A stretch of 64,000 nt of DNA from Escherichia coli (lineage in GTDB: Bacteria; Pseudomonadota; Gammaproteobacteria; Enterobacterales; Enterobacteriaceae). Location: NCBI RefSeq assembly GCF_001677475.2, contig NZ_CP015229.1. One strand, given 5' to 3'. The position numbers and the translations under genes are program-made. Under the pieces are notes generated by a model. It searched no databases, was not told where the DNA came from, and saw only the letters and a list, made by a program, of their open reading frames with translations. Shown here one piece after another: positions 11,013 through 62,660 of the stretch; position 1 is the first letter of the stretch; the number at the start of each line of letters is the position of its first letter.

Positions 11013-11879
11013 ATGACAGACAATACTTATCAGCCCGCGAAAGTCTGGACGTGGGATAAATCCGCTGGCGGCGCGTTCGCCAATATCAATCGCCCGGTTT
11101 CTGGTCCGACGCATGAAAAAACGCTGCCCGTTGGCAAACATCCATTGCAACTTTATTCGCTGGGAACGCCGAACGGTCAGAAAGTAACGATTATGCTTGA
11201 GGAGCTGCTGGCGCTGGGCGTTACTGGTGCAGAGTACGATGCCTGGCTGATACGCATAGGCGATGGAGATCAATTCTCCAGCGGCTTTGTCGAAGTGAAC
11301 CCAAATTCGAAGATCCCGGCGCTGCGCGATCATACGCATAATCCGCCGATCCGCGTGTTTGAGTCTGGTTCGATCCTGCTTTATCTGGCAGAGAAATTTG
11401 GCTACTTCTTGCCGCAGGATCTGGCGAAACGTACTGAAGCAATGAACTGGCTGTTCTGGCTACAGGGGGCTGCGCCGTTCCTCGGCGGTGGTTTTGGTCA
11501 CTTTTACCATTACGCGCCGGTGAAAATTGAGTACGCCATCAATCGCTTTACCATGGAAGCCAAGCGCCTGCTCGACGTGCTGGATAAGCAACTGGCGCAG
11601 CATAAGTTTGTTGCGGGCGATGAGTACACCATTGCGGATATGGCGATTTGGCCGTGGTTTGGCAACGTGGTGTTAGGCGGCGTGTATGATGCCGCAGAGT
11701 TTCTTGATGCAGGTAGTTATAAACACGTACAACGCTGGGCGAAAGAAGTAGGCGAACGTCCGGCGGTGAAGCGTGGGCGTATTGTTAACCGCACCAACGG
11801 ACCGCTGAATGAGCAGTTGCATGAGCGCCATGACGCCAGTGATTTCGAGACAAATACAGAAGATAAGCGTCAGGGGTAA
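11013..11879 (+). CDS. yghU: Nu-class glutathione S-transferase-like disulfide reductase (288 aa)
   Basis: Starts MTDNTYQPAKVWTWDKSAGGAFANINRPVSG, matching YghU from memory. Confidence 0.93.
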   Translation: MTDNTYQPAKVWTWDKSAGGAFANINRPVSGPTHEKTLPVGKHPLQLYSLGTPNGQKVTIMLEELLALGVTGAEYDAWLIRIGDGDQFSSGFVEVNPNSKIPALRDHTHNPPIRVFESGSILLYLAEKFGYFLPQDLAKRTEAMNWLFWLQGAAPFLGGGFGHFYHYAPVKIEYAINRFTMEAKRLLDVLDKQLAQHKFVAGDEYTIADMAIWPWFGNVVLGGVYDAAEFLDAGSYKHVQRWAKEVGERPAVKRGRIVNRTNGPLNEQLHERHDASDFETNTEDKRQG

Positions 11880-11904
11880 GGGTTAGCGTTCGTCGCAGCA
11901 AGCC

Positions 11905-11990
11905 ATCCAGGCCGTATAAGACGTTCACGCCGCATCCGGCAATCGAGCACAAGCCTGATGCGACGCTGCCGCGTCTTATCAGGCCTACGA
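11905..11990. repeat. BIME: two REP (repetitive extragenic palindromic) units in inverted orientation
   Basis: gccgtataagacgttcacgccgcatccggc and gcctgatgcgacgctgccgcgtcttatcaggcctacg match the E. coli REP consensus. Confidence 0.8.
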
Positions 11991-12000
11991 AATCTAATCA

Positions 12001-12249
12001 TCACGCGCTGGTAATGTCGTAATCCATTTGGCGCAGCGCGTCTAATGTGGCTTTGGCTTCGTCTTCGTCGATGATACTCATGGCAAATCCGACGTGCACC
12101 AGCACCCACTGGCCCAGCAGATCGGCAGGGTTACCTTCACAAATCAGGGCGATATTCACGTCGCGCTTGATACCACATACTTCAACCTGCGCAAGCTGGT
12201 GAATATCTTCACCGACAGCCAGCACCTGGCCTGGAACGCCAATACACAT
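12001..12249 (-). CDS. hybG: Hydrogenase maturation chaperone, HypC family (82 aa)
   Basis: [11 protein letters not shown]-terminus typical of HypC/HybG. Confidence 0.95.
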
Positions 12250-12289
12250 TGTTAACTCCGGTTATTTCGATTGCCGGACAAACGCGAAA

Positions 12290-12350
12290 AAGAACCTTTA
12301 GCGGGTGTTTCCCCTCACCCTAACCCTCTCCCCGGAGGGGCGAGGGGACC
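12290..12350. repeat. GC-rich palindromic repeat (possibly boxC-type) in the hybF-hybG spacer
   Basis: cccctcaccctaaccctctccccggaggggcgaggggacc contains interlocking inverted repeats. Confidence 0.4.
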
Positions 12351-12382
12351 GTCCGTGCGCTTTTCAAGCGTTGTCCTCAGTC

Positions 12383-12724
12383 TTATTCAACTTCAATACT
12401 TTTGACGATCAGCGAATCGCCGGTATCGACACGCAACCGCTCGCCATGACAGAGCGGACACTGCGCATCGTGCTGATGAATATCCACCACCTGGCTGCAA
12501 TCCCAGCACCAGGCCTGGGCGGGTTTATAGACGATATGTAAATCGCACCCTTGCGCCACCGTTCCGTGGCAGACAATTTCAAAACTAAAACGGACGGCGC
12601 TCTCCTCAACGCAGGAGAGCGCGCCAATTTCCAGCCACACGGCGGTGACGCGCTTAACATCGTGCTGCTCCGCCTGCCGTTGGATAATTTCAACGGCGCT
12701 CTGGCAAAGCGACAACTCATGCAT
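12383..12724 (-). CDS. hybF: Hydrogenase nickel-insertion protein, HypA family (113 aa)
   Basis: MHELSLCQSAVEIIQ plus CxxC...CxxC zinc motif; start taken at Met19 of the track ORF. Confidence 0.93.
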   Translation of the reverse strand: MHELSLCQSAVEIIQRQAEQHDVKRVTAVWLEIGALSCVEESAVRFSFEIVCHGTVAQGCDLHIVYKPAQAWCWDCSQVVDIHQHDAQCPLCHGERLRVDTGDSLIVKSIEVE

Positions 12725-28694: not shown

Positions 28695-28798
28695 GCTTTT
28701 TACGCCTCAAACTTTCGTTTTCGGGCATTTCGTCCAGACTTAAGTTCACTACACCTCACCGGAGCCTGCTCCGGTGAGTTCATATAAAGGAGGAACGT

Positions 28799-31104: not shown

Positions 31105-33321
31105 ACGTCCAACCGCCGCTTTAGGGCGTTTCTTCGCACCAGCATTCACCGGACGAGATTGCGTAGACGACGCTTTTTTTGCCGTAGCAGGCGTCTGACG
31201 CTGGGTCGCCATCGGCGTATGTTTAGTCAACGCCGGACGGGTATTGCGATTCTGGCGACGAGCCTCACGCATCTCTTCAATGGTTGGCGCAGGCACTAAG
31301 CAATCGCGACGGCTGCCAATCAGATGCTTTTTGCCCATCGCTTCCAGCGCCTGACGGATTAACGGCCAGTTTGCCGGATCGTGGTAACGCAACAACGCTT
31401 TATGCAAACGACGCTGTTTGTCACCCTTCGGTACAAAGACGTCTTCACTCTTATAACCAATCTTCGCCAGCGGGTTTTTGCCGGTGTAATACATAGTGGT
31501 CGAGTTAGCCAGCGGCGACGGGTAGAAGTTCTGTACCTGGTCGAGGCGGAAGCGGTGCTTTTTCAGCCACAGCGCCAGATTCACCATATCTTCATCGCGC
31601 GTACCGGGGTGTGCCGAGATGAAATACGGGATCAAATACTGCTCTTTACCTGCCTGTTTCGAGTAGGTATCGAACAACTCTTTAAAGCGGTCATAGCTGC
31701 CCATGCCCGGCTTCATCATCTTCGACAACGGCCCTTCTTCGGTATGTTCCGGGGCAATCTTCAGATAACCGCCGACGTGATGGGTCGCCAGCTCTTTGAT
31801 ATAGCGCGGATCTTCCACGGCGATGTCATAACGTACGCCGGAAGCGATCAGGATCTTTTTAATGCCTTTCAGATCACGCGCACGGCGATAGAGGTTGATC
31901 GTCGGTTCGTGGTTAGTGTCCATATGCGGACAAATATCCGGGTAAACACACGACAAGCGGCGGCAGGTCTGTTCAGCGCGTGGCGATTTGCAGCGCAACA
32001 TATACATGTTGGCAGTTGGCCCACCGAGATCGGAAATTACGCCCGTAAAACCTGGAACGGTGTCGCGGATCGCTTCGATCTCATTGATGATCGAATCTTC
32101 CGAACGGCTCTGAATAATGCGCCCTTCATGCTCGGTAATAGAACAGAAAGAACAGCCACCAAAGCAGCCACGCATAATGTTGACCGAGAAACGGATCATT
32201 TCGTAAGCCGGAATACGAGCATTGCCATAGGCCGGATGCGGCACGCGCTTGTACGGCAGCGCAAAAACGCTGTCCATCTCTTCGGTAGAAAGCGGGATAG
32301 CAGGCGGGTTGATCCACACATAGCGGTCGCCATGTTTTTGCATCAATGCGCGGGCGCAGCCTGGGTTAGTTTCGTGGTGCAGAATACGCGAAGCATGGGC
32401 GTACAGCACTTTATCGCCCTTCACTTTCTCGAAAGAAGGCAGCAACACGTAGGTTTTTTCCCATGGTTTCGGGCGCGGCGGCTGCACAGTTACAGCTTTA
32501 GCTTCCTGCTTTTTCGGGGCCACCGGTTTGTTATCCGCGCACGGCAGATCTTCGCCATACGGATGCGGGATTGGGTCGATTTTCCCTGGGGTATCAAGAC
32601 GGGTGGAATCCACACCGCTCCAGCCAGGCAGCGCCTCTTTTACGATAATTGCGGTATTACGCACATCGCGGATTTCACTAATCGGCTCACCCATCGCCAG
32701 ACGATGCGCCACCTCCACCAACGGACGCTCACCGTTACCGAACATCAGCATGTCGGCTTTCGAATCCACCAGCACGGAACGGCGCACGGTATCGGACCAG
32801 TAATCATAATGCGCGGTACGGCGCAGACTAGCCTCAATACCGCCGAGGATCACCGGCACATCTTTCCACGCCTCTTTACAACGCTGGGTATAAACCAGTG
32901 TGGCGCGATCCGGTCGCTTACCCGCGACGTTATCCGGCGTGTAGGCATCGTCATGACGTAAACGGCGATCGGCAGTGTAACGGTTGATCATCGAATCCAT
33001 GTTGCCAGCAGTAACACCAAAAAACAGATTCGGTTTACCCAGACGCATAAAGTCGTCTTTGCTGCTCCAGTCCGGCTGGGCGATGATCCCGACGCGAAAG
33101 CCCTGCGCTTCCAGCATACGACCGCAAATCGCCATCCCAAAGCTTGGGTGATCGACATACGCGTCGCCAGTAACCAAAATGATGTCGCAGCTATCCCAGC
33201 CAAGTTGATCCATCTCTTCACGAGACATCGGCAAAAACGGTGCCGGTCCAAAACAGGCGGCCCAGTACTGCGGCCAGGAGAACAGGTCGCGATCCGGTTG
33301 GATCAGGGAGATAGAGCTCAT
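31102..33321 (-). CDS. ygiQ: UPF0313 radical SAM protein (739 aa)
   Basis: CxxxCxxC radical-SAM cysteine motif (CFGGCSFC); length matches K-12. Confidence 0.93.
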
Positions 33322-62439: not shown

Positions 62440-62660
62440 GGCGGCATATAGCCAAAATAACGTGAGCGGGTCCATGCCCGACAGAATCGTTACTCTCTCC
62501 CATCCGGACTCTAACCGTCGGCCCCGGAATTACACCGGATCTGCTGTCCTTTGAGTTCGCACCCAAAGCGCTCGCGGGCTTTCAACTGAGTTGATTTACC
62601 GCCGGTGGGGAATTTCGCCCCGCCCTGAGAATAAGCGGATTCACTATAACGCTAATGATT
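62440..62660 (-). ncRNA. FMN riboswitch (RFN element) in the ribB 5' leader
   Basis: Minus-strand sequence contains the conserved RFN core (...ggcgaaattccccaccggcggtaaatcaactcagttgaaagcccgcgagcgctttgggtgcgaactcaaaggacagcagatccggtgtaattccggggccgacggttagagtccggatgggagagagtaacga). Confidence 0.85.

Follow-up and report, generated by a model that had tools for sequence, protein, structure and literature searches.

REPs and BIMEs are the most abundant repeats of Escherichia coli. A REP is an imperfect palindrome of 30-40 nt that has an internal mismatch and, 5' of its foot, a conserved GTAG. Two kinds of BIME are told apart in the literature by their units and linkers: BIME-2 consists of a z2 and a y unit in inverse orientation with the short linker S, and is described as repeated in tandem arrays together with flanking motifs (s, l or r); BIME-1 (RIP) consists of a z1 and a y unit with a long L linker that carries an IHF site. 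REP325, the BIME-2 array between yjdM and yjdN, contains naRNA4 as one Y-plus-Z2 unit, and every naRNA holds a Y and a Z2 hairpin. REP325 stabilises mRNA and is also an attenuator that depends in part on Rho, the partial Rho dependence being seen only with the full array (REP325 study, a 2026 preprint). Convergent genes flank about 60% of REPs, and REPs in such positions go with higher expression of both genes; according to the same preprint, Rho dependence was undetectable in REP fragments of 2-4 hairpins, and terminal REPs are uncorrelated with longer mRNA half-lives genome-wide. Binding of gyrase has also been reported for BIME-2 elements, and binding of DNA polymerase I for REPs. As to their mobility, the TnpA_REP (RAYT) enzyme requires a GTAG and a stem mismatch in its substrate, and REPs also provide sites for IS621, an IS110-family element with a bridge RNA, whose natural 11-nt target is ATCAGGCCTAC (or ATCGGGCCTAC) (Durrant et al., 2024).

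Here we compare with these systems an element at 11905-11990 of a 64-kb stretch of DNA (the window), where an earlier note had placed two inverted REP units between yghU and hybG.

A Y and a Z2 unit lie inverted between convergent genes

The genes and repeat units of the locus are as follows.

11013..11879, plus strand: yghU, glutathione-dependent disulfide-bond oxidoreductase (ORF; NCBIfam NF008731 equivalog, 557 bits; RefSeq annotation of matching E. coli loci)
11907-11941, minus strand: Y-type REP unit, degenerate, TGCCGGATGCGGCGTGAACGTCTTATACGGCCTGG (30/35 against the published Y consensus)
11942..11952, unstranded: short (S-type) linker, ATCGAGCACAA (12 nt between the stems if A11941 is counted)
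11953-11989, plus strand: Z2-type REP unit, intact, GCCTGATGCGACGCTGCCGCGTCTTATCAGGCCTACG (36/37 against the published Z2 consensus)
12001..12249, minus strand: hybG, HypC-family hydrogenase-2 maturation chaperone (NCBIfam NF007721 equivalog, 173.5 bits; RefSeq annotation of matching E. coli loci)

The stop codon of yghU is a TAA at 11877-11879 (plus strand) and that of hybG, the last gene of the hyb operon, a TGA at 12003-12001 (minus strand), and the two genes converge on a stop-to-stop gap of 121 nt (11880-12000). Beyond hybG the minus strand continues with hybF, hybE, hybD and hybC, in the same order as in K-12. Given the identities of the genes and their convergent layout, yghU and the hyb operon share this gap as their 3' region. 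The position given in the earlier note, where yghU and hybG converge and the operon ends, is borne out by the ORFs and the equivalog models.

The REP consensus sequences given by Durrant et al. (2024), used as queries, aligned to both units, which confirms the two inverted REP units claimed for this interval. By blastn-short the Y unit matched its consensus over 33 nt at 90.9% (E=3e-7), and in the match to Rfam naRNA4 it corresponds to the model's Y half; the Z2 unit matched with E=2.5e-14, and its sole mismatch to the consensus sits in the loop. A remembered form of the Y consensus, searched with ≤3 mismatches, had given no match: the unit has 4-5 mismatches and was recovered by a looser search and by the published consensus. 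Dinucleotide-preserving shuffles contained no consensus match (0), and by our own calculation a 35-mer with ≤5 mismatches has an expectation of ~1e-8 in 128 kb of random sequence. Consensus, blastn-short and Rfam searches found no further REP-like match elsewhere in the 64 kb. Two shorter resemblances were discarded: (i) a 13-nt stretch at 11891-11903, 85% complementary to the Z2 head, which is probably a chance match rather than a third REP relic, being short and in an orientation unfit for an alternating BIME; (ii) a 12-nt Y-head match at 32231-32242, due to chance and inside an ORF of 739 aa. As an observation on the region as a whole, the window is REP-poor, with one REP locus in 64 kb against about five expected from the density in K-12 (355 annotated REP elements in 4.64 Mb, ~one per 13 kb); REPs are unevenly spread.

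The units are inverted such that the GCC(G/T)GATG ends lie opposite one another across AATCGAGCACAA, with the GTAG/CTAC-side feet on the outside. The description of this arrangement as head-to-head stands if the head is the GCCGGATG end, as it reportedly is in the older PU usage of Gilson and Bachellier; if the head is the GTAG end (Nunvar, 2010), the very same arrangement is tail-to-tail. The two units differ in how well they are preserved. The Z2 unit is an imperfect palindrome that folds with an internal bulge/mismatch, and its foot, CTAC at 11985-11988 on the plus strand, reads as the conserved tetranucleotide GTAG on the minus strand. In the Y unit the tetranucleotide of the foot is CCAG instead of GTAG, as it is in K-12, and the unit matches its family by sequence but does not form a stable hairpin. 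The Y unit is thus a decayed REP member that remains recognisable by sequence. It follows that 'typical E. coli REP palindromes', the wording of the earlier note, is apt for Z2 and not for Y, which has no GTAG and carries two stem-breaking substitutions.

The element is a single unit of BIME-2 type

By its unit types, their inverse orientation and the linker of 11-12 nt, the yghU-hybG element is a single unit of BIME-2 type, with only one Y-Z2 pair where BIME-2 arrays have multiple tandem copies. BIME-1 (Y plus Z1) is likewise an inverted REP pair, but it differs from the present element in Z1 and in the linker. A full match to Z1 was found nowhere in the window; only the Z-type ends that are common to the Z2 match were recovered (10 nt at 11953-11962 and 15 nt at 11975-11989). 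The missing Z1 and the linker of 11-12 nt instead of a long L rule out a BIME-1, and with such a linker no IHF site is expected. As in the REP family at large, the position is extragenic and the copies are dispersed and high in number.

The pair as a whole was also recognised by an Rfam model.

11910..11985, plus strand: match to Rfam RF02564 (naRNA4) over the whole Y-S-Z2 pair (70.2 bits against a gathering score of 59.5; model 1-77 complete)

On the minus strand the same model scored 45.3 bits. Akin to REP325, the yghU-hybG element has a Y hairpin, a short linker (~13 nt in REP325) and a Z2 hairpin; REP325, however, repeats the unit six times in tandem (12 hairpins) and lies between genes that are themselves in tandem, while here one unit lies between convergent genes. 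A transcript of the pair might be processed to a discrete HU-binding RNA that condenses the nucleoid in trans, in the manner of naRNA4, which together with HU bridges cruciform DNA (Qian et al., 2015), and the match above the gathering score is in favour of this. RF02564, however, models a generic BIME-2 unit, so that the match denotes membership in a repeat family and not an sRNA gene; no promoter-like site was found at the element, and the nucleoid role of naRNA4 is itself disputed (REP325 study). We therefore consider an RNA of this kind very improbable, and read the Rfam 'naRNA4' match as a repeat-family label that is no evidence of an sRNA gene. Elsewhere in the window, Rfam placed an FMN riboswitch at 62488-62636 (minus strand, 120.9 bits) and an ES173 sRNA at 28697-28760 (plus strand, 95.4 bits), both above their gathering scores.

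The element also resembles REPINs, the substrates of RAYTs, which are likewise inverted REPs that pair into one long hairpin. Of the features that TnpA_REP requires, the Z2 unit keeps both on the minus strand, a 5' GTAG and the stem mismatch. Since the Y unit has no GTAG, only one strand gives a recognisable REP; a RAYT gene is absent from the locus.

The element is the K-12 repeat in a divergent E. coli lineage

At ~3139619-3139705 of NC_000913.3, K-12 MG1655 carries a BIME that agrees with the one in the window in its flanking genes, in its Y-linker-Z2 order and orientation, in the CCAG foot of Y and in its distances to the two stop codons. Alignment of the two intergenic regions gave 6 differences in ~150 nt (5 substitutions and a 1-nt linker indel): the linker of the window lacks 1 nt and carries one substitution, and 2 further substitutions lie in the left arm of Y. 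Judged by this alignment and the shared surroundings, the window element is the ortholog of the K-12 yghU-hybG BIME. Of the 5426 complete E. coli genomes, 3746 carried the Y-Z2 form at the locus; the 86-nt element, used as a query, matched at least 40 places in each of 5096 E. coli records, nearly every genome. With an ortholog in K-12 and a high-copy repeat family around it, the element is what the earlier note had called it, expected biology: the yghU-hybG BIME is an ordinary, already known element.

The same note had taken the repeat to confirm the species background. The REP type is insufficient for this, the Z2 unit at the locus being found in Escherichia sp. E1V33 too, but the assignment to E. 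coli itself holds by the identity of the window. Against complete E. coli genomes the window was 95-98.7% identical over 24 kb, with the best value (98.7%) at 30000-54000; all 5425 matching genomes fell in the 95-99% identity band, and over the 1.1 kb at 11400-12500 the best identity was 97.8%, to the soil strain VCSW7. On these identities the window is E. coli in the broad sense, from a lineage that has no close relative among the 5426 complete genomes.

Predicted folds favour one long hairpin without an intrinsic terminator

The left arm of Y carries two derived substitutions, G>T at 11915 and G>A at 11921 (plus strand), which are also found in VCSW7, the strain closest at the locus (97.8%). 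Since both break stem pairs, the Y hairpin on its own is weakened: its predicted energy is -6.9 (plus-strand RNA) or -11.9 kcal/mol (minus-strand RNA) as against -20.9/-21.3 in the K-12 copy, while the Z2 hairpin alone reaches -21.6/-22.9 kcal/mol. The 86-nt element as a whole folds at -37.8 (plus) or -43.3 kcal/mol (minus), as compared to only -28.5/-36.8 for the sum of the two hairpins. Because Y is no longer stable alone, the predicted fold of either transcript is a single long Y:Z2 hairpin; in the 127-nt intergenic RNA this one long hairpin was found at -46.0 kcal/mol on the plus strand (z=-3.7) and -48.4 on the minus strand (z=-2.3). In K-12 RNA, by contrast, two hairpins nearly equal the long hairpin in energy, which is not the case for the RNA of the window.

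Strong GC-rich hairpins on both strands, together with the report that some REPs coincide with bidirectional terminators (2026 preprint), might be taken to mean that the element ends transcription of yghU and of the hyb operon alike, as an intrinsic (Rho-independent) terminator that works in both directions. Yet an intrinsic terminator scan of 11880-12000 on both strands returned no site, and the hairpin is followed by no U-run on either strand, the plus strand continuing CGAAAUCUAAUCAUCA and the minus strand GGAUGGCUUGCUGCGA; on both grounds the element is not an intrinsic terminator. In addition, K-12 data reveal bicyclomycin-sensitive read-through beyond the element on both strands, and we regard a role as intrinsic terminator as scarcely plausible. 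The claim that the BIME marks the end of the hyb operon therefore holds by position only, an intrinsic terminator being absent from the gap.

The read-through is documented by two Rho regions of K-12 (Adams et al., 2021, supplementary file 2): 3139969(+), antisense to hybG/hybF, with a Rho score of 4.19, and 3139530(-), antisense to yghU, with a Rho score of 3.34. They lie ~264 nt (plus) and ~89 nt (minus) beyond the BIME in the direction of transcription, equivalent to ~12255 and ~11815 in the window; as these regions were called with 800-nt windows, they point to the neighbourhood and are not tied to the BIME. Past the element, the RNA of either strand of the window has more C than G. The bicyclomycin data from K-12 thus suggest that both convergent transcripts run through the element. 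The curated table of aerobic Term-seq 3' ends in the same study has no entry naming hybG or yghU, so that under those aerobic conditions no defined 3' end stabilised by the REPs was seen.

Alleles of the locus and an IS621 insertion

Beside the Y-Z2 form, a single-Y allele was found in 830 of the 5426 genomes (e.g. AF34, locus record L003, 781-849); its 69-nt spacer holds one Y-type REP with GTAG, at a distance of 8 nt from the hybG stop, and lacks Z2. Other forms differ within the pair or next to it. In A20 and FDAARGOS_1260 ten extra bases, AGACCAATGT, give the Y unit a proper GTAG; FDAARGOS_1260 in addition has 9 extra nt between Z2 and hybG, a ATCCGGCTT remnant, which hints at a formerly larger array; and in CUPS05 the left half of Y is deleted. 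As a set, the single-Y allele, the GTAG indel, the remnant and the half-Y allele suggest, by comparison of their sequences, that deletions have occurred repeatedly in a once larger array. Two things vary little: Z2 is nearly unchanged across all the BIME-bearing alleles examined, and in both main alleles a REP hairpin lies ≤15 nt from the hybG stop.

The outer foot of Z2 holds a target of IS621.

11978..11988, plus strand: 11-nt target of the IS621 bridge-RNA recombinase, ATCAGGCCTAC (unoccupied; single exact copy in the window)

The target, empty in the window, is occupied in other strains. In 2013C-3181 (locus record L004, 3578-4866), where the sequence was read, IS621 sits in the Z2 foot, at ATCAGGCCT^..^CTAC, with the junctions …ATCAGGCCT, IS621, CTACGAAAGC…, and in A35 and EPSSH018 an IS621 gene is annotated at identical locus coordinates. 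All three strains have the same YghU protein, which argues for a single event, and the three are probably one inherited insertion. Among evenly sampled genomes, ~10-13% had a break at the IS621 position, a rough estimate of which three cases were checked. A count of 1102 genomes with IS621, obtained with a junction query, was rejected, as Z2 and the IS end cover >80% of the query and the hits are thus not locus-specific.

Outside E. coli, Escherichia sp. E1V33, of a cryptic lineage of the genus (locus record L005, 3065-3270, minus strand), has kept the linker and Z2, with a TMECO-type repeat where Y would be. Among GTDB species representatives, E1V33 was the only match to the exact Z2-hybG junction, and the exact Y-linker-Z2 junction had no match, which, in a scan for exact matches, is weak evidence of absence.

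The position of Z2 relative to hybG raises the possibility that this unit tunes translation, its hairpin stalling the terminating ribosome and lowering HybG output, which would be compatible with other roles of the repeat. From sequence and fold, the GTAG of Z2 lies 12 nt and its stem 14 nt after the hybG stop, within the rule of Liang et al. (2015) for REPs ≤15 nt from a stop codon, as that rule is rendered in citing text, where the measure of distance may differ from the one applied here; the single-Y allele, with its REP 8 nt from the stop, would conform to it as well. The spacing is, however, not invariant, as the 9 extra nt of FDAARGOS_1260 demonstrate, and neither hybG nor yghU appears by name in the supplements searched for two REP papers. 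We consider translation tuning by Z2 unlikely.

A TMECO insertion between hybF and hybG

On the other side of hybG, the window contains a 121-bp insertion (12267-12387) between the hybF stop and the ribosome-binding site of hybG, where K-12 has 12 nt. A direct repeat, TTATT, brackets it (12262-12266 and 12383-12387), and the second copy gives the hybF stop. Its core, 12311-12346 on the minus strand, is identical at 36/36 positions to the intrastrand-triplex motif 'TMECO A mm', which has been tied to genomic instability and described as invariably intergenic (Holder et al., 2015). The full-length insertion was present at this site in 19 of the 5426 complete E. coli genomes, with 100% identity in strain N3, and the ~75-nt TMECO core occurred at ~14 places per genome. 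Repeats of this one family occupy the Y position in E1V33 and the hybG-hybF gap in the window. At 12306-12362 Rfam also reported 'Antizyme_FSE' (24.1 bits against 40, E=0.011), which was dismissed as a false positive on the G/C-rich triplex motif.

Discussion

We propose that the element originated as a non-autonomous repeat of REP/REPIN type that would have been spread and remodelled by TnpA_REP (RAYT), of which only Z2, read on the minus strand with its GTAG foot and stem mismatch, would now be a competent substrate. Its present effect would be that of a passive, bidirectional 3'-UTR structure: the mRNAs of yghU and of hybOABCDEFG would end in the element or cross it, the hairpin would hinder 3'->5' exonucleases and so set and stabilise both mRNA 3' ends, and Rho would halt RNA polymerase in the untranslated antisense stretch just past the element. 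Taken as a whole, this account of a BIME-2-type ortholog of the K-12 repeat, with a REP/REPIN origin, a role as 3'-UTR hairpin and Rho termination beyond it, appears highly probable to us, origin, role and termination being the parts that we infer.

Against this account speak the undetectable Rho dependence of fragments of 2-4 hairpins, the missing genome-wide correlation with mRNA half-life and the Term-seq table without hybG or yghU. Against a 3'-UTR role speaks further that the locus is dispensable in its present form, as witnessed by the single-Y allele of 830 genomes, the half-Y allele and the IS621 in Z2, and that Y is decaying in this lineage; such losses and decay fit a neutral selfish repeat equally well. 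The repeat could accordingly be a functionless, decaying relic of the REP/RAYT system, a reading that conflicts only with the 3'-UTR role and not with the identity as a BIME. A Y unit that lacks GTAG and has two stem-breaking substitutions in the lineage is what such a relic would look like, and so is the allelic series of the 10-bp GTAG indel, the half-Y of CUPS05, the single Y, the IS621 insertion and the replaced Y of E1V33. The near constancy of Z2 in the BIME-bearing alleles examined, the REP hairpin kept close to the hybG stop in both main alleles and the correlation of REPs between convergent genes with higher expression of both argue in the other direction, and we hold a purely neutral relic to be possible, if on the unlikely side. 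A bolder proposal would be that selection keeps the Z2 hairpin, nearly constant while Y decays, in place for its effect on how much HybG chaperone is made, by ribosome stalling and/or 3'-end protection, with hybG expression in this lineage further modified by the rare TMECO insertion; we judge this rather improbable.

In practical terms, the annotation of this BIME is correct and routine, and it matters little. What modest value the locus has would lie in its variation between strains, with at least 6 structural alleles that include the insertion of the bridge-RNA element IS621.
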